In this document: positions 950-29,499 of the stretch, in pieces
Layout: each line of letters begins with the position of its first letter
Position numbering within the stretch: position 1 is the stretch's first letter
Source of the DNA: Pseudomonadota bacterium
GTDB taxonomy: Bacteria > Pseudomonadota > Alphaproteobacteria > Caulobacterales > Hyphomonadaceae
DNA length: 32,000 nt
Assembly (NCBI GenBank): GCA_038746145.1
Contig: JBCDKW010000005.1
Coordinates: 77,032-109,031, forward strand
Reading direction: 5' to 3'
Translations under genes and position numbers: made by a program
The notes under the pieces: model-generated
What the model saw: the letters and a program-made list of their open reading frames with translations, nothing else
The model's database searches: none
Told to the model about the DNA's origin: nothing

Positions 950-1540
950 ATGGCTGAGTTCGGACCCAATGGAGCCGTTATCACCGCACCGACGCAAGCA
1001 GACTATGCGGCAGCACCGCCCAAGATCAAGCGGGTCGCGCTCGCCTGTTTTCTGTGCGGTGTCGCGGCCTGTTTGAGTGTCACGCTTGTGGCTTTGGGGC
1101 TGTTTGGACTTGGGCGTGCGATCATCATAATGGATGATGATCTGAATGTGATCAGTGGCCGTGGGATGTTGGCCGGGGCTGGCTTTGCGATGTTCATATC
1201 TCTGTTCAATTGGTTCGTGTTCTACATCACTGTGCCAGCGGCATGGCTGACAATCGGCCTCTCGATCGGCCGGTTTCCGCATCGCAGGATCACCGCGGCC
1301 GCGCCCTATTATCGTTGGTCAGCGATTTTAGGGGCGCTCTTGGTGGGGGTGACCTGCTCTGTGTTCGCCGCGCTGGTTTATACAGATGGCGGTGAGCGCG
1401 GCGAGCTCGGTTACTGGTTCGGGGCAACCTTGATGGGGGTGTTTATTGGCGCGGTTTCCGGATTGATCTGTGGGGGGCTGTTCCGTGCCATTGTCAGACC
1501 CGCCAGCCAGATTAAACGCCATCAGCTTGAGGTGTTTTAG
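950..1540 (+). CDS. Hypothetical integral membrane protein (about 4 TM)
   Basis: ATG start preceded by AAAGGAG. There are several long hydrophobic segments ([48 protein letters not shown], etc.). I recognise no family motif. Confidence 0.6.
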
Positions 1541-3388: not shown

Positions 3389-4105
3389 TCACTTTTCTGA
3401 TGGAGCCATAGCATATGCTGGATATGTTAAATCGCATCTCCAAGCCGGGTAGCCCCCGCTTTCTTTTACTGGAAATCGATCCTGTAGGATTGAGATTTTG
3501 ACCCGCTCGAATATGCTCTCTTCAGAGATGTATTTCGGGTCAGACAAGCATTTTCCTTCTACGTCATGTGCGCGTCCGTCTTTGTCTACATCGAAGATCA
3601 TTTCGCATTTCGCTGCCATATCTGCCGATAGTCCATCAGCGGCAAAGTTTTTGTCGAGGTGTACCATATACGAGGTTCTACCGTAGAGAAGCTCTTGTCT
3701 GGTATAGGGGTCTGACGGGTCTTCATCGCGAAAGTGGATACCATCTGGAACGGTCTCTAATGCGTCGCGACGATCGTTACAAAAATTATAGGTCTGCTGT
3801 TCTAGGTACGTCAGGTTGTAAAAATACGCGTCTTGTTCGACGACTTCCAGAAGTTTTGCCAAGTCCTCGTTTGTTGAGCATACAGTGCCACTGAGAGATT
3901 GACGCTTAATGATGTCCTCTCGAAGCTTTATCAGCCCACTCTTTCGTAATCCGCCCTTCGAATCCAAAGCGGCTGTGTATCTAGTCTTCAGATAAGAGAT
4001 GTCCGCGGGATCCGTTGGGTTTTTGCAACTGTCCTCGATGTCCTGCGCGCCAGCTGGAAGCGTCAGGGCGAAGGTGACGAGTAAAGGTAGAAATCTAATG
4101 CTCAT
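3389..4105 (-). CDS. Secreted hypothetical protein with a possible TonB_C-like C-terminal domain
   Basis: Signal peptide MSIRFLPLLVTFALTLPAGAQD, with GAGGGA 8 nt upstream of the ATG at 4105. The C-terminal approx. 80 aa (CEMIFDVDKDGRAHDVEGK...FERVKISILQDRFPVKESGGYP) resembles the TonB C-terminal pattern. The gene is visibly AT-richer than its neighbours. Confidence 0.55.
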   Translation of the reverse strand: MSIRFLPLLVTFALTLPAGAQDIEDSCKNPTDPADISYLKTRYTAALDSKGGLRKSGLIKLREDIIKRQSLSGTVCSTNEDLAKLLEVVEQDAYFYNLTYLEQQTYNFCNDRRDALETVPDGIHFRDEDPSDPYTRQELLYGRTSYMVHLDKNFAADGLSADMAAKCEMIFDVDKDGRAHDVEGKCLSDPKYISEESIFERVKISILQDRFPVKESGGYPAWRCDLTYPAYAMAPSEK

Positions 4106-4128
4106 CACCCCGATCCCTCTTCAACGCT

Positions 4129-5209: not shown

Positions 5210-5245
5210 CAAAAAAAGCTCCGGCGAGGAGGCCGGAGCTTTTTG
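5210..5245 (-). terminator. Rho-independent terminator downstream of ctrA
   Basis: Stem AGCTCCGGC (5217-5225) pairs with GCCGGAGCT (5232-5240) around a 6-nt loop. On the minus strand the stem is followed by a T7 run (the plus-strand A-run at 5210-5216). Confidence 0.8.
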
Positions 5246-5266: not shown

Positions 5267-5968
5267 TTAGGCGGCGACGGCTTCTTTCTTCGGTTTTGGA
5301 TCACGCAGAACATAGCCGCGGCCCCAGACTGTTTCGATATGATGCTCGCCGCCTGTGGCCTGCTGCAGTTTCTTGCGCAGCTTACAGATGAAGACGTCGA
5401 TAATCTTCAGTTCCGGCTCGTCCATACCGCCATAAAGGTGGTTGAGGAACATTTCCTTGGTGAGCGTTGTCCCTTTGCGAAGGGAGAGAAGCTCGAACAT
5501 CTGGTATTCTTTGCCGGTCAGGTGGACGCGCTCATCGTCGACTTCGACTGTTTTCGCATCAAGGTTCACGAGGATGTCGCCGGTGCGGATCACGCTTTCG
5601 GCGTGGCCTTTAGAGCGGCGAACGATGGCTGTTATGCGCGCGATCAGCTCATCTTTGTTAAATGGCTTGGTTAAGTAGTCATCGGCACCGTAGCCGAGTG
5701 TTTTAACCTTCGCTTCAATGTCAGGATTACCAGACAGGATCAGGACAGGTGTGTTTACACGCGCCATGCGAAGCTGTTTGAGGACATCATAGCCGGAGAT
5801 GTCTGGCAGAGAGAGGTCGAGAATGATGATGTCGTACTCGTAGACCTTGCCGAGGTCGACGCCTTCTTCACCAAGATCCGTTGCGTAAATGTTGAAGCCT
5901 GCAGCCTTCAGCATCAGTTCAATCGAACGAGCGACGGCATTGTCGTCTTCAATCAGTAGTACTCTCAT
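5267..5968 (-). CDS. ctrA: Cell-cycle master response regulator CtrA (OmpR-family)
   Basis: Near-colinear identity to Caulobacter CtrA as I remember it: MRVLLIEDD...[14 protein letters not shown]...LDL.LPD.SG.DVL..LR......P..ILSG...[53 protein letters not shown]...[16 protein letters not shown]. Confidence 0.97.
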
Positions 5969-6092: not shown

Positions 6093-6932
6093 TTAACAAG
6101 CGATCGATTGCCCATTGTCTTCAAGCAGCGTGTGCGCAATGGCAATCGCGTCCTGAATGGGCTGCGAATTTGGGTCCGTAGAGATTAATGTGCGCTGTGA
6201 GCGGATGGCTTCGCGCACGGCTTCATCTCTCATAATCGTTCCCGCAAGAGCCGGGCGGAAGGTCAGGAAGGTCTGACACGCGCGGGCCACAGCTTCGAAG
6301 GTGCGTTGACCGGCAGCGCGCGTTTCACACTGATTGATCGCGACGACTTGTTCGACGCTCGGCGCATAGCCGCGCAGCACTTTCATAAAGGCGTAGGCGT
6401 CTGTCATTGAGGTCGGTTCGTCTGTGATGATCATGACGACTTTGTCAGCCGCACGCGCCAGACGCATGCAGTTATTCTCAATGCCGGCCCCCAGATCGAG
6501 GATGACCTGATCATATTGCAGGGCGAGGGCGGAGAGGCCAGCGGCGAGGCGGGCCACTTCTTCGGAAGAGAGCTCTGCCAGTGCACCGGATCCAGAACGA
6601 CCGGGAAGGACGTCGAAACCACCTGAGGATGATCCGCCGTCGACGGGTGTGACTGCATCTTCAAGTTCGACCCAGCCTGCGATAACGGCTGCGAGGTCTG
6701 TTTCGGGCGCAATACCAAGTTGGACATCGACATTTGCAAGGCCGAGGTCGCCATCGACGAGTAGCGTCTTCTTTCCGGCTTGCGCGAAGGCACTGGCCAG
6801 CGTGATCGACATGAAGGTCTTACCAACACCGCCTTTGCCTGAACCGACGGCGATGATTGAGGCTGGGGTAACGCGGCGCTGCGGTTGCTTGCGCTGCGGG
6901 CGTTCCATGGATTTTGGAAGTAGGAAGCTCAT
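6093..6932 (-). CDS. flhG: MinD/ParA-family ATPase, flagellar number regulator FlhG/FleN-like
   Basis: Deviant Walker A GSGKGGVGKT, then LLVDGDLGLANVD, then Walker B VILDLGAG. The gene is translationally coupled to flhF (TAATG overlap at 6932). Confidence 0.8.
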   Translation of the reverse strand: MSFLLPKSMERPQRKQPQRRVTPASIIAVGSGKGGVGKTFMSITLASAFAQAGKKTLLVDGDLGLANVDVQLGIAPETDLAAVIAGWVELEDAVTPVDGGSSSGGFDVLPGRSGSGALAELSSEEVARLAAGLSALALQYDQVILDLGAGIENNCMRLARAADKVVMIITDEPTSMTDAYAFMKVLRGYAPSVEQVVAINQCETRAAGQRTFEAVARACQTFLTFRPALAGTIMRDEAVREAIRSQRTLISTDPNSQPIQDAIAIAHTLLEDNGQSIAC

Positions 6933-7936
6933 TATGCAGCTCCTCTCAAGGCGACATGGGCAGGCGCATCCTCAGTGAGGAGCTGTGCCAACCGGTTCGG
7001 CGTGGCCGGGATAAGGCCTCCACCGATAAAAGGTGTTACGGCGAGATGCGCGAAAGCGATCCCGGCACTCGACAGGGCAGAGACGATACCGCCTCTCCGG
7101 CGTGTGACGTCGAGTTTTGTGACGATGGCGCGTTTGACGCCGCAGCGGGCAAACGCTTTGGCCATATCGGCCTGATCTTCGGGGTGACCCTCCGCGCTGA
7201 TGACCAAGACTGGCTCTGCTTTAATAACAGGCAGAAGGTCCTGCAGGCTTTGCATATCGTCCTGTTCGAAGGGGACGATAGCGGGCAGGTCGATGACACA
7301 GCGCTGTTTGTTTTCGCGGATCGTCTTAAGGACGCTGAATAGAGCGTCTGGCGTGTTGATGCTTCTGATCTGATCCTGCTCGCGCTCCAGATAGGCCGCG
7401 AGTTGTGCGCCACCTGCTGTGTAGTCTAGGTCCGCGGCGACGGGGAGGATTTCTGATTTTGTGACTGAGGCGCGCCGGGTTAGCTTGGCGGCGACGGCGG
7501 TACGTCCATGCCCCGGAGGGCCGACGAGTACAATGTCGCGTTCCAGACGCGGCGCGATTGGGCGGCAGGTGATGGTTTTGTCCAGACCGGCTGCGATCGC
7601 GCTGGTTGGTTCTGTCTGATGGATATCCGCTGTGAAACCGGCATCGGCAACACGCTCTGCGAAACGCTGGGGCGCGCCGTGCCAGAGCAGGGCGTCGCGT
7701 ACACGGTTGCGAAGTGGATTATCGTTCAGTCTCGGTGCAAGTGGGGCACCCAAGCGTGAAACGTTATCGCCGATCGACGGCACCATGCCGCCCCCAAGCT
7801 TGTCTGTGGCCGCCCTGACCTCGACACCGCCCGGCACTTCGCGCTCTGACAGAATGATGGCGTCATCACCCATCTCGGCGAAGATCAATGCCTTGGCAGC
7901 CTCTAAGGACTCAGCGGCAAACATCTTCATTCGCAT
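6932..7936 (-). CDS. flhF: FlhF-like SRP-type GTPase with degenerate G motifs
   Basis: FlhF-type N-terminus MRMKMFAAESLEAAKALIFAEMGDDAIILSEREVPGGVEVRAA. The NG domain has G1 GPPGHGRT (canonical GxxGxGKT), G3 DLPA (canonical DTAG) and G4 TKLD conserved. GGAG RBS. Confidence 0.8.
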   Translation of the reverse strand: MRMKMFAAESLEAAKALIFAEMGDDAIILSEREVPGGVEVRAATDKLGGGMVPSIGDNVSRLGAPLAPRLNDNPLRNRVRDALLWHGAPQRFAERVADAGFTADIHQTEPTSAIAAGLDKTITCRPIAPRLERDIVLVGPPGHGRTAVAAKLTRRASVTKSEILPVAADLDYTAGGAQLAAYLEREQDQIRSINTPDALFSVLKTIRENKQRCVIDLPAIVPFEQDDMQSLQDLLPVIKAEPVLVISAEGHPEDQADMAKAFARCGVKRAIVTKLDVTRRRGGIVSALSSAGIAFAHLAVTPFIGGGLIPATPNRLAQLLTEDAPAHVALRGAA

Positions 7937-8071: not shown

Positions 8072-8329
8072 TCACGCCGCGCGGCGCTGGTCGACGATCT
8101 CGCTGAGTGTGACGCCGAGTTGTCCGTCAGCAATGACCAAACGGCCCCGTGCCATGAGGCGATCCGAGACATAGATGTCGACTTGATCGCCGGTCTCACG
8201 GTCTAGGGCAAGGATATCACCATGCGACATCGCCAGAAGCTCATCGACGGGAATGCGGGCTTCGCCGAGCACAACGTCCACGCGAACAGGGGCATCCATA
8301 AGTGTATTTTCGAGCGCGCGATTGAGCAT
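8072..8329 (-). CDS. fliN: Flagellar motor switch protein FliN (SpoA domain only, 85 aa)
   Basis: VRVDVVLGEARIPVDELLAMSHGDILALDRETGDQVDIYVSDRLMARGRLVIADGQLGVTLSEIV is a typical FliN/SpoA C-terminal domain. Confidence 0.85.
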   Translation of the reverse strand: MLNRALENTLMDAPVRVDVVLGEARIPVDELLAMSHGDILALDRETGDQVDIYVSDRLMARGRLVIADGQLGVTLSEIVDQRRAA

Positions 8330-8395: not shown

Positions 8396-8776
8396 TCAGA
8401 CCGTGCTTGCGTCATTAGAAGTTTCAAAAAGATCAGCTTGGCCATCGATCAGCGTTGTCGCGAGGCGCCTGACGTTTTCCAGCGCAGTTCGTCTTTCTTC
8501 TTCGTTGAGGGCGGCTGTGTCGAGATGGCGTGTGAGGGTGATGACCTGCTCCAGTGCGGTTTTCAGCTGGTCGGACAGATTCTCGGCATCCTTTGCGTGC
8601 GCCTTCAACGTGTCGTCTTTCACGAGCGCTGCGCTGCTGTCGCGTGTGTCTGCTAGAAGAGCAGATAGCTCATCGGCCGTCAGAACGATGTCGCTTTTAT
8701 GCTCGGCCGGGCGTTCCGGCGGCGTGAAGTCACTTTGGAAGGTAAAGGGGCTGAGATTGGCGACCTTGCGTTTCAT
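8396..8776 (-). CDS. Short FlbE/FliH-like flagellar assembly protein (assigned by position)
   Basis: 126 aa, coiled-coil-like and acidic. It has an ATGA overlap with fliG and occupies the flbE slot of the Caulobacter fliF-fliG-flbE-fliN order. I did not verify any diagnostic motif. Confidence 0.4.
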   Translation of the reverse strand: MKRKVANLSPFTFQSDFTPPERPAEHKSDIVLTADELSALLADTRDSSAALVKDDTLKAHAKDAENLSDQLKTALEQVITLTRHLDTAALNEEERRTALENVRRLATTLIDGQADLFETSNDASTV

Positions 8777-9681
8777 TCAATGAGATCCTGATCAGGCTTT
8801 GATGCCGATAATAGGTCGCCGCGCCTTGCCAGTTTACGCGCTGTTTTTGCGATTTCTCTGCGGGCCTCTTCGATCTCGGCGCGGCGGAAGGGCCCGCTGC
8901 TTTCGATTTCACTGCGCAAGACATCGCCTGCGCGGGTGGTCATGTTGCGATAGAATGCGTCAGCGGTTCTGGTGTTTGCGTTCTGCAAAGCGATGATCAG
9001 CAGTGCGCGATCCGTGTTTGCCAGCAAGGTCTGCAGGCTACCTGGGTCGAGTGTTGCCAAATCATCAAACGTGAACATGAGCGCTTTGACGCGGTCTGCG
9101 CTGCCCGGCTCGATTTCATCGAGGCTGGCCATCAGGTCAGCTGCATTCGTGCTGTCGACCACATTCATAATCCCAGCGAGGCGATCTGGGCCGGAAGATT
9201 GAACCGAGCTTGCCTGCGTGCGGGCTGCGAAGGCTGTTTCTACTGCTGTCAGGGCCGAGGGATGGAGCGTGTCCATCCGCATCAGGCGATGCAGCGCTTG
9301 CACGGCGGTCTGTTTCGGCAGGTTCTGGAGCGTCGCTGCTGCCGTATGCTCCGGCAGGATTGAGAGCACAAGCGCTGTGACCTGCGGGCTTTCCTGATTC
9401 AGGAAAGTGAGGATTGCGTTGAGCTGATTTGTACCGAGCGTGGACAAGCTGCCTGATGTTTTAGTCGTGTCCTGGTCGCGGGCCATGTCTTTTAGAAAGG
9501 CATCGCCGATACCGGCTGTTTCTTTGTCAGCATCAATCGATTGCATGTCGGCTCTCAGCCGATCTGTTTCGTCAGGTGACAGCAGATCCCAGACCGCATC
9601 TGCGTCGGACCCGAGCGCTTTCATTAGAGCTGCACTGCGCGAAGATCGCCCTGGTGAGCGTGTTGGGGCTGGCAGGGTCAT
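8773..9681 (-). CDS. fliG: Flagellar motor switch protein FliG
   Basis: Middle-domain ESPQVTALVLSILP (EHPQ-type motif), MFTFDDL, and the C-terminal torque-helix region NMTTRAGDVLRSEIESSGPFRR with the conserved Arg residues. 302 aa. Confidence 0.9.
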   Translation of the reverse strand: MTLPAPTRSPGRSSRSAALMKALGSDADAVWDLLSPDETDRLRADMQSIDADKETAGIGDAFLKDMARDQDTTKTSGSLSTLGTNQLNAILTFLNQESPQVTALVLSILPEHTAAATLQNLPKQTAVQALHRLMRMDTLHPSALTAVETAFAARTQASSVQSSGPDRLAGIMNVVDSTNAADLMASLDEIEPGSADRVKALMFTFDDLATLDPGSLQTLLANTDRALLIIALQNANTRTADAFYRNMTTRAGDVLRSEIESSGPFRRAEIEEARREIAKTARKLARRGDLLSASKPDQDLIE

Positions 9682-10316
9682 TGATTATCCTCCTGCATCC
9701 AGCGGCGGATGAGGTTTGCGGATCGCTCAGGCGCTGCATTGGCGAGGGCAGCTGCTTTGCGATGTGAGTTGTCATTTAGGGGCTGAAAGTGCGTGTCTTC
9801 TTTTGTGCCACGTTGGGGTGTTGGAGGCGCTTGCTGCTCCTTCCGCTTCTGCTCCGGGGCCCGCACATAAAGAATAATGAGCGATATTAAGGCGATGCCG
9901 AGCGCGCCCAGTTCTGCAATCTCAAGCGGGGTCAATGCGCCTCGCAGTGTTCCGGCAAAGGGTTGTTGGATGATTTCGAGACGGTCTCGGTCGACTTGAA
10001 ATCCGCGCGCAACGGCAAGGTTTGCGATCATCGGTGCATGTTCTGACGCTGCACCTTCACTTAGCGCCTGGCCATGAATCAGGACGAGCCAGTCATAGCG
10101 GCCATCTGCATTGCGTTGAATTGAGGTTCTGACGCGATCTGGTCCGACAAACGGCTCTATTAGAGCGGTAAAACGATGTTCCTGTGGTGAACCAATCGTT
10201 TCCGTCTGCGGTGGTGCACCGAACAGGGCGAGCGCGCGCAAAAACAAAACCCCCGCCACCATGGTCATGGCAGCGAGGGCAAGGGGTCGAGTGGTGGTCG
10301 ATCTGGTATCGTCCAT
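9678..10316 (-). CDS. Miniature FliF-like MS-ring protein (TM1, one ring-building motif, TM2, FliG-binding tail)
   Basis: 212 aa in the fliF position, with an ATGA overlap to fliG. It has two TM helices. The periplasmic approx. 110 aa resembles the two halves of FliF RBM3 (LIEPFVGPDRVRTSIQ...; MIANLAVARGFQVDRDRLEIIQQPF compared with Salmonella ...EAMGFSDKRGDTLNVVNSPF). The C-terminus NLIRRWMQEDNQ resembles the FliF tail ALVIRQWMSND. Confidence 0.55.
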   Translation of the reverse strand: MDDTRSTTTRPLALAAMTMVAGVLFLRALALFGAPPQTETIGSPQEHRFTALIEPFVGPDRVRTSIQRNADGRYDWLVLIHGQALSEGAASEHAPMIANLAVARGFQVDRDRLEIIQQPFAGTLRGALTPLEIAELGALGIALISLIILYVRAPEQKRKEQQAPPTPQRGTKEDTHFQPLNDNSHRKAAALANAAPERSANLIRRWMQEDNQ

Positions 10317-10440
10317 AAACGCATGCCTTGCCTAATGCTCTTGGCGACCAGCAATAGGACGGTTTGCGTAAACGACGCTTTAACTCTGTTTGAGCGCAAG
10401 GGTTCTCGCGCGCTCAAGTCGTTTTTTTAGGACAGAAATC

Positions 10441-10719
10441 CTAGCGGTACTGTTGAATGCGCGTGGTGCGCAGGCCTTTACGGCCGTGATCATTGTACAG
10501 TTTTGCCCAGCCAGCGAACTCTTCTGCGCTGAGACCGTAGCGATCAAGCGCGTCTTCTTCGCTAAGCAGGCCGCCTGAGACGGCAGCGACAACTTCGGCT
10601 TTGCGGCGTGTGACCCAGCGTGTCACGCCAGGCTTTGGGAGGTCTTCAAGGGTCAGCGGACGGCCATCCGGGCCTTTCACACTGATGGATTGTGCATTCT
10701 GCGCCATGTTTTCCACCAT
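10441..10719 (-). CDS. sciP: SciP-like small CtrA-inhibitory transcription factor (DUF1153 family)
   Basis: RWVTRRKAEVVAAVSGGLLSEEDALDRYGLSAEEFAGW...HGRKGLRTTRIQQYR matches the SciP/DUF1153 pattern. An alternative start at 10707 has a better SD (GGTGGA). Confidence 0.85.
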   Translation of the reverse strand: MVENMAQNAQSISVKGPDGRPLTLEDLPKPGVTRWVTRRKAEVVAAVSGGLLSEEDALDRYGLSAEEFAGWAKLYNDHGRKGLRTTRIQQYR

Positions 10720-13841: not shown

Positions 13842-13856
13842 TTAAACAAAGGTTAA
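13842..13856. promoter_or_regulatory. Perfect CtrA box TTAA-N7-TTAA
   Basis: TTAAACAAAGGTTAA lies in the 360-bp AT-rich ppdK/sleB-like intergenic region. GATTC (GANTC) sites follow at 13871-13875 and 13882-13886. Confidence 0.4.
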
Positions 13857-18611: not shown

Positions 18612-18626
18612 TTAAATCAACATTAA
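18612..18626. promoter_or_regulatory. Perfect CtrA box TTAA-N7-TTAA
   Basis: TTAAATCAACATTAA overlaps the thioesterase stop codon and lies upstream of the 83-aa ORF. Confidence 0.35.
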
Positions 18627-19165
18627 GTTGAATTTTTTTGATCTGCTTTTCCGTCAAGAATATCCTGACGCAATTCAATGAAGGTTTTCGTCAGAGGTGG
18701 AGATGTTGTGTCATGGCCAACCGTCTCAAGAACCATTGCCGGATTGACGTAGGAGCGATTTGTCGCCGCGAACTTTGCCAAAACGTTCACAGTCGCATGT
18801 GTGCGGCCATTCAGGATGAAATTGTGCTGTAGGCAAACATAAGTGTCATCCCAGCAAGTGACCTGTGTGTTCAGGTCAAAGCCCTGTGGAAATTTCAGCA
18901 TCTTAGAGATCACGACTTTCTCTGAGAGAATGACGGGAATCCAGCCTCTTTTTCGCATCGTGCCCCAGCAGCCTGAGCGAATGATGAAATTGATCGTTCC
19001 AAGGTCGCTGAAAGAGAAATAGCGGCTGTTCGTGAGGTGCGCGAACATATCCTGATCTGTCAGCCAGACACTGAACTTCAGCTTGTACAGATCTGTGATC
19101 TTACCGTCTTTCTTAGAGAAGATGGCATTCAGAAAAACGCGGAGCAGGCGGAAAAACAGGTTCAC
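18623..19165 (-). CDS. Hotdog-fold acyl-CoA thioesterase-like protein (4HBT_2-like)
   Basis: The pattern WLTDQDMFAHLTNSRYFSFSDLGTINFIIRSG...MRKRGWIPVILSEKVVISKMLKFPQGF...WDDTYVCLQHNF matches thioesterase-family proteins (..D.D...H.NN.RY....DLGR......G......GW.PV......F...L..F). GTG start with an AGGGAG SD, 12 nt after the upstream stop. Confidence 0.65.
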   Translation of the reverse strand: MNLFFRLLRVFLNAIFSKKDGKITDLYKLKFSVWLTDQDMFAHLTNSRYFSFSDLGTINFIIRSGCWGTMRKRGWIPVILSEKVVISKMLKFPQGFDLNTQVTCWDDTYVCLQHNFILNGRTHATVNVLAKFAATNRSYVNPAMVLETVGHDTTSPPLTKTFIELRQDILDGKADQKNST

Positions 19166-27255: not shown

Positions 27256-27423
27256 GCGCGGCCTTTAGCGCGGACGCTGGGGATTCGGAAGTGGGTTTGT
27301 TGCGTGACACTAAACGCAACTTGAAATTTTGTTAAAATTCTTTTCTACCACTAAAAGATGTGTTATCGGTCATCTCTATCGCATTGAATATTGTGAGACT
27401 TAAAGAATTGTGGGGTGGTTATC

Positions 27424-29499
27424 ATGAATACTATTGATCCAAGGCAAAAGCAGGCGAATGAGATACGAAAGCAGGCGACTGAAATCGCTTCGAGTCGTGT
27501 TCGGAAGCCGCATCTACGTAATGGTGAAGAACAAGACTTGGGCGGTTATGATCCGAACTGTCCTCATGTTCGCCAACGTCAACGCGGTGGAGCGATCGAA
27601 AATAAAATTCCCTATCTGACTTTCTCGAAAGGGTTAGCGCATGATGACGAAACGGGACTCCCGACCCGCGCGAGCGTGCTTAATTTGCGTAAGGCAATCA
27701 ACCAGAAAAAAGTCGACGACTTCAATGATATTGGCATTGCATTTAAAGATACTTCAAACAGGCGGTTTTTCTCTGTAGCTGGCCAAACGTCTATCGCTAA
27801 TGGTTTCGTCGTTATTAATGGGCGCGCGCATCGGCGCTGGGAGGCGCCCACAGCAGGATATGTCTTTGATTTGCAGGGGCCAGATGCTCAGGCAGTTACA
27901 ATGCCGCCAGCGCCGCGCGCCTTTCCGCGAGCGGGTAGAACAGAACCCGATGCCGAATTGGTTGCCGATATGGCTGAGGTATACTGGTTTGGTCTATTAC
28001 GCGATGTGCCATTCTCTCACTTCAAAAAAGGGCGAAAGAACAAAGGGAATTATCCGGCGACTCCGAGTGGCGTGGATGTCGGCGATGCTATCAATTATCT
28101 GAAGAAGTTGGATTTCTACAAAAAAGATTTTCCGCGATATGGTGCTGTCAAAGGCAAAAACTACGGCGCGGCCTGCAGTGTTCGCCCTCACGCTGATACT
28201 TTAAGCGCGCAAAATATCTTCAGAGGTCAAACGCCGGGTGATCAAATCGGTCCGTACATCAGTCAGTTTCTACTTATCGGGAATGATGGTGCAGGTGGGG
28301 CCGATGATAAAGCGACGGATGGCCTTATAAAGTACGGTTCTATTCGCATTGATCAACGTGTTCGTGAGGCAAAAGCGCATGTTGATTACATGACTGTCTG
28401 GAATGAGTATCTGGATGTGCAGGACGGCGCGAATGTCTCGCGAACACAGAAGTTTGTATCAAACCCAAATTCAGCTGGTGGAGCTGGTGACAACTTTCGC
28501 TTTATTGCAACACCTCGCGACTTAGCGACATATGTCCACTTCGATGCGCTTTACGAAGCGTATTTAAACGCGTGTCTCTGGCTCCTTTCTGCTGGAGCAC
28601 CACTTGATCCTGATTTCAAAAAAGTGGCGGGCGAGCCTGATGGCGCGGTCGAAGGTTTTGCACTTTATGGGGGACCGCACATTCTGTCGCTTGTAACAGA
28701 AGTTGCGACGCGTGCGCTAAAAGCTGTAAGGTATCAGAAGTTCCAAAATCATTTGCGTCTACGTCCTGAAGCTTTGGCAGGTCTTCTAGCTGCCGAACCT
28801 GACATAGCAAAGCCGACCGTAGACCCGCTTATTGACGCGTTGAAAGCACCGAACGGTCGGAACGTCGTTGATTTATTGGCCAAAGTTCAGTCGCACAATC
28901 AGGCAGTTAACAGCAAAAATCGCAAGAAAATGGGGCAGTATCTGGCCGCTCAATCACAAAATCCGCTTGCCGCTCGTGACGATCTTCCATTGCTGCCAAT
29001 GGCCTTTCCTGAAGGTTCTCCCATGCACCCAACTTACGGGGCTGGGCATGCAACCGTCGCCGGAGCATGTGTGACGATGCTGAAAGCTTTTTTTGATGAA
29101 GATGCAGAGCTTCGCATTGATAAGGACGGTAAACACATTGCGATTGCGCCTAATGACCCGCATTGCGATGGGAGTGTACCATTTGCCTATGAAGCAATCG
29201 CAGATGGCACGAGCCTGTGCAATGTGTACTCAAAGAAAGCGGACGCCTTAACTGTCGGCGATGAATTGAATAAGTTGGCCTCAAATATTTCCATTGGGCG
29301 CAATGTGGCCGGTGTTCACTATTATTCTGATTATATCCAAAGCTTGGTCATGGGCGAAGAGATTGCAATCGGTGTCTTGAAGGAACAGGCCGTGACTTAC
29401 ACTGGAACGGAAGATTTAAAGATGACTTTTGAATCGTTTACTGGAAAGTCGGTCCAGATCAGGAATCCTAATCCGCATATATCTATACTGAGTGCGTAG
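27424..29499 (+). CDS. Vanadium-dependent haloperoxidase-like protein (PAP2 superfamily, bromoperoxidase type)
   Basis: The three PAP2/V-HPO motifs are in the correct order: KAVRYQKFQNHLRLRPE (K..RP), PMHPTYGAGHATV (PSGH-like) and GRNVAGVHYYSDY (R..H...D). The N-terminal part follows the V-BPO pattern (NGEE...FSKGLAHD...EVYWFGLLRDVPF). There is no signal peptide. I prefer the ATG at 27424 to the GTG at 27415. Confidence 0.8.
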   Translation: MNTIDPRQKQANEIRKQATEIASSRVRKPHLRNGEEQDLGGYDPNCPHVRQRQRGGAIENKIPYLTFSKGLAHDDETGLPTRASVLNLRKAINQKKVDDFNDIGIAFKDTSNRRFFSVAGQTSIANGFVVINGRAHRRWEAPTAGYVFDLQGPDAQAVTMPPAPRAFPRAGRTEPDAELVADMAEVYWFGLLRDVPFSHFKKGRKNKGNYPATPSGVDVGDAINYLKKLDFYKKDFPRYGAVKGKNYGAACSVRPHADTLSAQNIFRGQTPGDQIGPYISQFLLIGNDGAGGADDKATDGLIKYGSIRIDQRVREAKAHVDYMTVWNEYLDVQDGANVSRTQKFVSNPNSAGGAGDNFRFIATPRDLATYVHFDALYEAYLNACLWLLSAGAPLDPDFKKVAGEPDGAVEGFALYGGPHILSLVTEVATRALKAVRYQKFQNHLRLRPEALAGLLAAEPDIAKPTVDPLIDALKAPNGRNVVDLLAKVQSHNQAVNSKNRKKMGQYLAAQSQNPLAARDDLPLLPMAFPEGSPMHPTYGAGHATVAGACVTMLKAFFDEDAELRIDKDGKHIAIAPNDPHCDGSVPFAYEAIADGTSLCNVYSKKADALTVGDELNKLASNISIGRNVAGVHYYSDYIQSLVMGEEIAIGVLKEQAVTYTGTEDLKMTFESFTGKSVQIRNPNPHISILSA

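Follow-up and report, generated by a model that had tools for sequence, protein, structure and literature searches.

Here we describe a short member of the FliF superfamily, encoded in a 32-kb stretch of the genome of a bacterium of the family Hyphomonadaceae (GenBank assembly GCA_038746145.1, contig JBCDKW010000005.1, positions 77,032 to 109,031 of the forward strand), which we call the window and on whose full length all coordinates are given. The 212-aa protein, hereafter mini-FliF, is, on the evidence of profile comparison and structure modelling, a genuine FliF homologue reduced to a first transmembrane helix (TM1), an uninterrupted third ring-building motif (RBM3), a second transmembrane helix (TM2) and a FliG-binding tail. 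The explanation that we favour, with a probability of about 0.62, is that of a domain-reduced FliF within a retained, export-less and miniaturised FliF/FliG/FliN module derived from a canonical flagellar cluster. What is new here is a member of the superfamily of minimal architecture inside a flagellar cluster that is itself miniaturised.

A short gene in the fliF slot

The gene and the parts of its product are laid out as follows.

9678..10316, minus strand: entire mini-FliF gene with its stop codon, 212 aa
10218..10289, minus strand: TM1, residues 10-33 (AlphaFold2, AF2, helix 10-33; hydropathy peak centred on residues 20-26)
9957..10187, minus strand: periplasmic domain, residues 44-120, a single ring-building motif (RBM) of RBM3 type (AF2, Foldseek, family profile)
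9861..9929, minus strand: TM2, residues 130-152 (AF2 helix 130-161; hydropathy peak centred on 137-145)
9771..9860, minus strand: cytoplasmic linker, residues 153-182, variable and predicted to be disordered (predicted local distance difference test, pLDDT, 34-52)
9681..9770, minus strand: C-terminal putative FliG-binding tail, residues 183-212, two helices (motif and alignment)

In the list of open reading frames (ORFs), this frame begins at the first start codon past an in-frame stop, and it cannot therefore extend further. Its stop codon, TGA, and the start codon of the next gene (8773..9681, here FliG2) overlap as ATGA, and a spacer of 124 bp (10317-10440) separates it from sciP. A previous interpretation made from the letters of the window and their translated frames (the sequence-only reading) had described a 212-aa frame coupled to fliG in this way and lying 124 bp from sciP, a description with which both the ORF list and the family scans agree; it had also seen no room for a longer gene, and the in-frame stop ahead of the first start codon leaves none. 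A recent frameshift (for which it had likewise seen no room) or truncation is ruled out by the length of the protein, constant across the whole family described below. The five peptides that it had quoted were all found where it had placed them: LALAAMTMVAGVLFLRALALFG corresponds to residues 12-33, LIEPFVGPDRVRTSIQ to residues 52-67, ARGFQVDRDRLEIIQQPF to residues 103-120, LGALGIALISLIILYV to residues 136-151 and NLIRRWMQEDNQ to residues 201-212.

Only around two centres, residues 20-26 and residues 137-145, do Kyte-Doolittle windows rise above the threshold of 1.6; the two transmembrane segments so defined, together with the AF2 helices, uphold the earlier assignment of a retained TM1 and TM2. 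TM1 is the best-conserved stretch of the protein among close relatives, and TM2 aligns with the TM2 region of the FliF of Salmonella and with that of a canonical alphaproteobacterial cluster, L012. As a whole, the AF2 model consists of TM1, one confident αββαβ domain (residues 44-117, pLDDT ~90) and TM2, then a disordered linker and, at the C-terminus, two helices. With a length of only ~95 residues, the periplasmic segment contains one RBM, modelled as helix 44-57, strands 62-68 (β1) and 74-80 (β2), helix 94-103 and strand 112-117 (pLDDT 83-91), with β1 and β2 connected by a loop of ~5 residues. The sequence-only reading had considered that this segment resembles only the flanks of RBM3; the similarity stands and the restriction does not, since together those flanks make up one complete αββαβ ring-building motif with pLDDT ~90. 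The linker, in turn, holds 8 of the 20 amino-acid differences between mini-FliF and its counterpart in the related locus L001.

Evidence of descent from FliF

An exhaustive HMMER search gathered 104 cluster representatives of the mini-FliF family, essentially all of 197-235 aa, with no full-length FliF among them. The shortness of the protein is thus no accident of one genome, as 104 representatives share this narrow range, and the length stays constant even though the clusters are mutually only 20-30% identical. One further candidate, P0088 (1382 aa, repetitive; E 1e-5, with five stretches against profile positions 17-74), was judged a spurious compositional or repeat artefact, and tblastn against plasmids gave no match. 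Some family members carry the COG label "FliF/YscJ" in IMG, NCBI calls them hypothetical, and there is no curated Pfam or NCBIfam model that covers the family.

A profile built from 93 of these sequences retrieved from the PDB the FliF of Salmonella (E 3.2e-8) as well as three other solved FliF proteins; a shallow profile of 7 sequences had found nothing there, FliF being reached only with the deeper one. Profile positions 45-73 correspond to FliF residues 240-268, and positions 84-220 to residues 396-559. It has been described that RBM3 comprises residues 228-270 and 382-438 of FliF, and that the beta-collar occupies residues 271-381 (PMC8270960); by these limits, the two halves of RBM3 are matched, as are TM2 and the C-terminus that binds FliG, and exactly the collar is skipped. 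Neither this profile nor hhalign yielded any alignment to FliF residues 50-230, the region of RBM1 and RBM2. This gap in the alignment, together with the single RBM of the AF2 model, corroborates the earlier suggestion that RBM1, RBM2 and the beta-collar are absent. Furthermore, hhalign of the family against the full-length FliF of L012 gave a probability of 95.5% (E 1.4e-8) over the same region, and PF08345 matched 28 of the 93 family members weakly, with a best value of 1.2e-4.

The fold points in the same direction. When the model was compared with the PDB by Foldseek, the structural check against Salmonella RBM3 that the sequence-only reading had proposed, the ten best matches were all RBM3 or membrane and supramembrane (MS) ring chains of Salmonella FliF (E 4e-4 to 3.5e-3, probability 1.00), followed by domain 2 of PrgK and by EscJ (E ~2e-2). 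At the level of single residues, G58, the equivalent of FliF G258, is the sole invariant column (93/93 sequences), and L52, I53 and I66 are mostly hydrophobic across the family; their equivalents in FliF, I252, L253 and V266, are residues of the ring interface (PMC8270960). The tail motif A-x3-A-x2-D-P-x3-A-x-[VIL]-[ILV]-R-x-W-[MLI] is kept family-wide (P196 in 92/93, R204 in 88/93 and W206 in 92/93), and the tail aligns with the C-termini of the FliF proteins of Salmonella and Vibrio and of a third FliF in the PDB, as well as with that of L012, in accordance with the earlier view that it is like the FliG-binding end of FliF. Binding of this tail to FliG2 is predicted on these grounds.

A miniaturised flagellar cluster

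In the window, mini-FliF belongs to a cluster that reads sciP-FliF(212)-FliG(302)-FliH remnant(126)-FliN(85)-FlhF-FlhG-ctrA, all on the minus strand; no further flagellar genes were found elsewhere in the 32 kb. Besides mini-FliF itself, its elements are the following.

10441..10719, minus strand: sciP (CtrA inhibitor, DUF1153); NF051866 124 bits against a cut-off of 100, Pfam DUF1153 2.3e-36
10368..10383, minus strand: 16-nt TTAA-N7-TTTAC, probable promoter element resembling a CtrA box; its distance to the ATG of mini-FliF is 52 nt
8773..9681, minus strand: FliG2, 302 aa, translationally coupled to mini-FliF; Pfam FliG_C 2.6e-30 and FliG_M 2.7e-15
8396..8776, minus strand: X, 126 aa, in the fliH slot, with a 4-nt overlap with FliG2
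8072..8329, minus strand: FliN2, 85 aa, SpoA domain only; FliMN_C 2e-22, TIGR02480 84.6 bits against a cut-off of 84.05
6932..7936, minus strand: FlhF-like GTPase of signal recognition particle (SRP) type, 334 aa, with an altered P-loop; TIGR03499 2.5e-17, under its cut-off; matches PDB FlhF chains
6093..6932, minus strand: FlhG/MinD-like ATPase, 279 aa; AAA_31, CbiA and MinD models
5267..5968, minus strand: ctrA, the final gene of the cluster; NF045991 CtrA 412 bits against a cut-off of 350
5213-5244: bidirectional terminator, past ctrA

The nearest canonical relatives of FliG2 are found in two clusters, L012 (5890-15501) and L013 (5834-16311), where the order is sciP-fliF-fliG-fliH-fliN-(motA)-flbD-flhA-flhF-flhG, flbD being a sigma-54 activator. 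There, FliF has 536 or 558 aa (that of L012 scores 284 bits on TIGR00206), FliG 340, FliH 228 or 260 (PRK06032, 1e-45) and FliN 117 or 126. This confirms that mini-FliF sits in the syntenic fliF slot, as the sequence-only reading had put it. The canonical alphaproteobacterial class-II cluster and that of the window agree in gene order and in linkage to sciP, and their proteins are related, with identities between the window and L012 of 39% for FliG, 44% for FliN, 44% for FlhG, 31% for FlhF and 61% for SciP. The differences lie in size and content: FliF has 212 aa here and 536 in the canonical cluster, FliG 302 and 340 (its N-domain being shortened), FliH 126 and 228, and FliN, reduced to its SpoA domain, 85 and 117. 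Moreover, the cluster of the window lacks an flbD-like activator gene, flhA and motA in comparison with L012 and L013, and ctrA is appended to it.

Altogether, the cluster of the window is a miniaturised derivative of the canonical one. What has been lost are parts for type III export, namely RBM1 and RBM2, the collar, FlhA and the ATPase-binding part of FliH; what has been kept are parts of the rotor and of its placement, namely the RBM3 ring former, the FliF-FliG interface, the FliG residues that contact stator and FliM, the SpoA domain of FliN, and FlhF and FlhG. In L012 and L013, where sciP stands directly before a full-length fliF and flhA is followed by flhF-flhG, the arrangement suggests that linkage of sciP to fliF and an FlhF/FlhG pair are ancestral to alphaproteobacterial flagellar clusters of this kind.

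The reduced arrangement is not confined to the window. A comparison of orthologous loci, also proposed by the sequence-only reading, covered seven distinct contexts (L001, L002 from Hyphomonas sp. FCG-A18, L003, L006, L008, L009 and L010), and the order sciP-miniFliF-FliG2-X-FliN2 is conserved in all seven, including those whose mini-FliF proteins are only ~25% identical to that of the window. The 4-nt overlaps between mini-FliF and FliG2 and between FliG2 and X are likewise kept in 7/7 contexts, all ORFs are intact in every locus examined, and the FlhF-like gene, the FlhG-like gene and ctrA follow the operon in 5/7. The block flhF-flhG(motR)-ctrA lies apart from the block sciP-miniFliF-FliG2-X-FliN2 in L009, in L010 and in Hyphomonas neptunium, and a gene resembling mnmA, for a tRNA methyltransferase, stands just before sciP in four loci (L006, L008, L009 and L010). 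Outside this group, the orphan fliG of Rhodobacterales (P. inhibens PGA1_c18800) was considered as a possible part of an operon of this sort and rejected: it lies between purB/"hypo" and an acyltransferase gene, far from ctrA, and nothing indicates that the neighbouring "hypo" gene is a mini-FliF.

The partner genes

FliG2 scores 134 bits on TIGR00207, under the cut-off of 227, and shares 39% identity with L012 FliG across residues 92-299. Its family comprises ~90 clusters of 300-315 aa, whose named members come from Hyphomonas, Henriciella and Hyphomonadaceae, and keeps the FliM-binding ExPQ..R, the MFTF motif and equivalents of the stator-contact residues K264, R281, D288/D289 and R297 in 77-90 of 90 members. 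For FliG2, AF2 models the M and C domains with confidence and gives the N-domain just three helices, of low pLDDT. The N-domain of FliG reportedly requires the FliF tail to fold, and a low-confidence N-domain is what would be expected in such a case.

The product X had no match in Pfam, NCBIfam or the PDB. It shares an N-terminal F-x-F-x3-F with the FliH proteins of canonical clusters, hhalign against canonical FliH is weak (E 0.003, probability 11%), and X is probably the N-terminal remnant of a FliH. In the X family (orthologues in L002-L010, 120-150 aa), a C-terminal G-Q-x-[DNE]-L-F is near-invariant, for which no counterpart was identified in FliH, and the centre of the protein appears helical, as judged by eye. 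FliN2 is 44% identical to residues 43-117 of the FliN of L012.

The FlhF-like protein has arginine instead of the Walker A lysine in its P-loop, GPPGHGRT, and DLPA in place of the DTAG of SRP-type GTPases; both are invariant in five orthologues that are 68-89% identical, whereas the canonical FlhF of L012 and L013 keeps GxxGxGKT. With the low substitution ratio given below, it may be a conserved pseudo-GTPase. The FlhG-like protein is 44% identical to the one in the FlhG slot of L012, and its counterpart in H. neptunium is annotated MotR. The orthologues of the FlhF-like gene in four of the related loci are located as follows.

L002, 12365-13369
L003, 12514-13527
L006, 12460-13470
L008, 11233-12237

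Three ORFs elsewhere in the window have no Pfam match: 27415-29499 (plus strand, 694 aa), 3389-4108 (minus strand, 239 aa) and 950-1540 (plus strand, 196 aa); the first two have no NCBIfam match either.

A conserved element ahead of the operon

The element TTAA-N7-TTTAC occurs once in the 32-kb window, against 0.06 matches expected, and exactly once per locus in ten related loci; it invariably lies between sciP and mini-FliF, on the strand of the operon, 52-89 nt ahead of the start codon of mini-FliF. A TTAA-N7-TTCAC is present between sciP and fliF of canonical clusters, and both types of cluster thus carry a related TTAA-N7-TTYAC element at that position. The CtrA box is TTAA-N7-TTAAC, from which the element of the mini operon differs by one base, and CtrA would be expected to bind it. 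In H. neptunium, a 744-bp CtrA peak obtained by chromatin immunoprecipitation has been assigned to sciP (PMC7200025).

Perfect TTAA-N7-TTAA matches exist at two other places on the plus strand of the window, where 0.14 are expected by chance: one at 13842-13856, between the genes for a pyruvate phosphate dikinase-like protein and a cell-wall hydrolase, and one at 18612-18626, adjoining the start of 18623..19165 (minus strand), a thioesterase-like ORF.

Selection on the cluster

Ratios of non-synonymous to synonymous substitution rates (dN/dS) were computed against L001, from a 91%-identical relative. They amount to 0.07 for FliG2, 0.12 for X, 0.06 for FliN2 and 0.02 for the FlhF-like protein, and there are zero non-synonymous changes in the FlhG-like gene, ctrA and sciP; most of the module is, as judged from these substitutions, under strong purifying selection. 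For mini-FliF, the ratio is 0.53 (0.43 without the linker), with a dN of 0.045, like that of its neighbours. Constraint on mini-FliF is indicated by the long-term conservation of its length and motifs, rather than by dN/dS. The sequence-only reading had named as alternatives a paralogue with a non-flagellar role or a relic in a non-motile lineage; these come nearer to the evidence than its first idea of a one-RBM MS ring, except that a dead relic is contradicted by the purifying selection on most of the module.

The synonymous rate itself varies along the locus: against L001, dS is 0.11 in sciP and 0.086 in mini-FliF, and from FliG2 through ctrA it is 0.23-0.41, i.e., 3-5 times higher. A recent recombination tract or constraint at the nucleotide level are possible causes of the low values in sciP and mini-FliF.

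An additional set of genes in Hyphomonas neptunium

The question of whether mini-FliF stands beside a full-length FliF or replaces it can be approached through H. neptunium, whose motility island spans HNE_0239-0276 (PMC7200025). There, HNE_0242 is annotated as fliF and is displayed over 160 rows of ten bases (~1.6 kb), is assigned to COG1766 and has CC_0905 as its closest homologue in Caulobacter (PMC7200025). The island also contains fliN (HNE_0244), fliP (HNE_0245), fliG (HNE_0246, COG1536) and a FliM-type gene of COG1868 (HNE_0252) (PMC7200025). Apart from the island lie sciP (HNE_1390), a hypothetical gene (HNE_1391), a "putative FliG" (HNE_1392) and another hypothetical gene (HNE_1393), while an FlhF homologue, MotR and ctrA are found at HNE_0942-0944 (PMC7200025). 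From the synteny, and from the presence of family members in Hyphomonas, HNE_1391 would belong to the mini-FliF family. HNE_1391-1393 are expressed, and show a joint rise when divJ is mutated (PMC7200025). Our literature search brought up no publication about HNE_1391-1394, nor about a second FliF/FliG set in Hyphomonas.

Since full-length fliF, fliG and fliN are located elsewhere in the H. neptunium genome, the mini operon constitutes an extra set there, and it is most likely, by analogy, that the mini operon of the window, too, is accompanied by a complete flagellar gene set located apart from it. The Caulobacter genes sciP (CC_0903) and fliF (CC_0905) are two genes apart (PMC7200025). Given that SciP is a single-copy cell-cycle regulator and that its gene is near fliF in Caulobacter, we infer that the mini cluster occupies the ancestral locus, now eroded, and that the working flagellar genes are those of the island.

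Comparison with known ring proteins

Mini-FliF is like FliF (TIGR00206; PF01514 and PF08345) in having two transmembrane helices around a periplasmic RBM, in the coverage by its profile of RBM3a (240-268), RBM3b (396-438), TM2 and the tail motif DPxxxAxVIRxWM, and in the position of its gene, in the fliF slot, before fliG and coupled to it. It differs in its length (212 aa, against ~530-560 aa), in lacking RBM1 and RBM2, and with them the housing of the export gate, and in having a short hairpin in place of the 110-residue insertion that forms the beta-collar (271-381), so that there is no socket for the rod either.

FliF has been described as almost invariantly made of three RBMs, the sole exception noted to this canonical architecture being that of Chlamydiaceae, a short FliF of ~330 aa in a FliF-FliG fusion (Bergeron, 2016, PMC4768692). 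Both are naturally reduced proteins with fewer RBMs and without a full flagellar export and rod apparatus built around them; the chlamydial one, however, has two RBMs (one like RBM2, and another) and is fused to a domain like FliG M (PMC4768692), whereas mini-FliF combines a single RBM3-type RBM with a normal FliG-binding tail, and its dedicated FliG is a protein of its own, in another lineage and in a context of FliN, a FliH remnant, FlhF, FlhG, sciP and ctrA.

SpoIIIAG, SpoIIIAH and SctJ are, similarly, small membrane-anchored proteins whose periplasmic or intermembrane RBM builds homo-oligomeric rings. Nevertheless, they lack a FliG-binding tail and a FliG/FliN operon, the profile match to SpoIIIAG (5wc3) is insignificant (E 0.86), and SpoIIIAG contains a beta-barrel insertion, like that of FliF RBM3, which is absent from mini-FliF. 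An identity with SpoIIIAG, a single-TM protein of the spoIIIA operon of Firmicutes, was thus rejected for a protein with two transmembrane helices, no insertion and an alphaproteobacterial flagellar context; so was one with SctJ/YscJ, a lipoprotein with two RBMs from injectisome gene clusters, as there is no match to TIGR02544, only one RBM, an uncleaved TM1, and fliG, fliN and flhF as neighbours. Two further candidates were discarded: a component of the E-ring, which is made of the ARM-like proteins MotE/FlbB/FlgY, and the periplasmic "hat-like" structure related to the type III secretion system of flagella, which occurs in many phyla without the mini-FliF family and is not FliF.

A possible mechanism and its alternatives

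According to the explanation that we favour, mini-FliF would have its N-terminus in the cytoplasm, followed by TM1, the RBM3-type motif with the collar excised, TM2, the linker and the two-helix tail, and would head a translationally coupled operon, miniFliF-FliG2-FliH remnant-FliN2, behind TTAA-N7-TTTAC. Isolated RBM3 forms rings (PMC8786727), and mini-FliF would oligomerise in the inner membrane through its RBM. Its tail would co-fold with the N-domain of FliG2, and FliG2, FliN2 and the FliH stub would make a platform like the cytoplasmic (C) ring on the cytoplasmic face, anchored by mini-FliF. In canonical basal bodies, the RBM2 ring houses the export gate, and RBM2 and the collar hold gate and rod (PMC8270960); devoid of both, mini-FliF would hold neither and would be unable to serve as a secretion-competent basal body. 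As to its role, with low confidence, the module might be a polar adaptor or landmark acting with FlhF/FlhG at the new pole for the real flagellum.

Several points weigh against this explanation. The sequence of mini-FliF alone gives zero matches in Pfam (E<=1) and NCBIfam (E<=0.1) and passes none of the models TIGR00206, PF01514 and PF08345, so that the search with PF01514 and PF08345 which the sequence-only reading had proposed would, taken by itself, count against FliF. The E-values from Foldseek are modest (4e-4) and the TM-scores low, the latter because the whole model, including the transmembrane helices, was the query. Recent constraint on mini-FliF is weakly documented, as its dN/dS rests on only 34 substitutions and an unusually low dS. 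The coexistence with a full-length FliF is drawn from the literature on H. neptunium alone, the assignment of X to FliH from its position and a short motif, and ring formation, the binding of FliG2 and the control by CtrA are steps that we infer.

FlhF and FlhG place and count polar flagella in other bacteria, and the linkage of the operon to their genes lends some weight to the idea that mini-FliF, FliG2 and FliN2 are built into the canonical basal body, or are needed to assemble it, for instance as extra FliG/FliN subunits or as a chaperone or seed of the C ring together with FlhF/FlhG. We consider this unlikely. FliG2 keeps ExPQ..R and the charges of the torque helix though the operon encodes no FliM, so it could use the canonical FliM and stators; the promoter element is of the same type as that of canonical fliF, and HNE_1391-1393 change along with flagellar genes in the divJ mutant (PMC7200025). 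On the other hand, an RBM3 without a collar would not fit into the 34-fold collar barrel of the canonical MS ring (PMC8270960), each FliG N-domain reportedly needs a FliF tail of its own (Lynch et al. 2017, cited in PMC13023049), a point in favour of a dedicated pair and not of mixing, and no literature linking HNE_1391-1394 to motility was found. More doubtful still would be a self-standing, export-less rotor in Hyphomonadaceae, in which a one-RBM FliF ring with a C-ring-like assembly of its own FliG and FliN, wired to the cell-cycle regulators CtrA and SciP and to a pseudo-GTPase FlhF, forms a flagellum-derived, non-propulsive polar device that is no part of the flagellum; such a rotor would still engage stator units or FliM, and its job would be, e.g., that of a landmark, a dock for stators or second messengers, or a checkpoint sensor.

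The sequence-only reading had contemplated a flagellar MS ring built from a one-RBM protein, which in its strict form would make the 212-aa protein the only FliF of the lineage, with gate and rod accommodated in some other manner. Its gene does occupy the true fliF slot, is coupled to a FliG with intact stator- and FliM-contact residues, and has no second fliF for company within the 32-kb window; but H. neptunium carries the operon plus the full-length HNE_0242, with FliN, FliP, FliG and FliM in the island, and the idea is for that reason not borne out. Moreover, flhA and the ATPase-binding part of FliH are gone, which fits an export apparatus that was lost and not one re-engineered, and the missing RBM2 and collar are the parts that hold gate and rod (PMC8270960). 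We therefore regard a sole one-RBM ring as very improbable. About equally little credence can be given to a functionless cluster, left over from an ancestral flagellar system and still eroding. None of the structural genes reaches the length of its canonical counterpart, flbD, flhA and motA are gone, the dN/dS of mini-FliF is 0.53 and the P-loop lysine of FlhF has become arginine, all of which speaks for decay; against it stand ORFs intact in all loci examined, a length constant over ~100 clusters only 20-30% identical, the conserved 4-nt overlaps and promoter element, ratios of 0.02-0.12 for FliG2, X, FliN2 and FlhF with an FlhG free of non-synonymous changes, and expression of the genes in H. 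neptunium (PMC7200025).

Implications

With the chlamydial fusion as the only exception noted so far, the mini-FliF family constitutes a second and cleaner one: a natural minimal FliF, made of an RBM3 core without collar and a FliG-binding tail. Paired with its own FliG, FliN and FliH stub, it amounts to a natural experiment on the parts of the MS/C-ring interface standing alone, and it could become a small model for the assembly of RBM3 rings and for the co-folding of FliF and FliG. At the same time, the cluster is a case of selective erosion, in which the parts for secretion were lost and those of the rotor and its placement were kept at the sciP/ctrA locus. It offers a testable candidate link among placement by FlhF/FlhG, cell-cycle control by CtrA/SciP and the flagellum in stalked budding bacteria.

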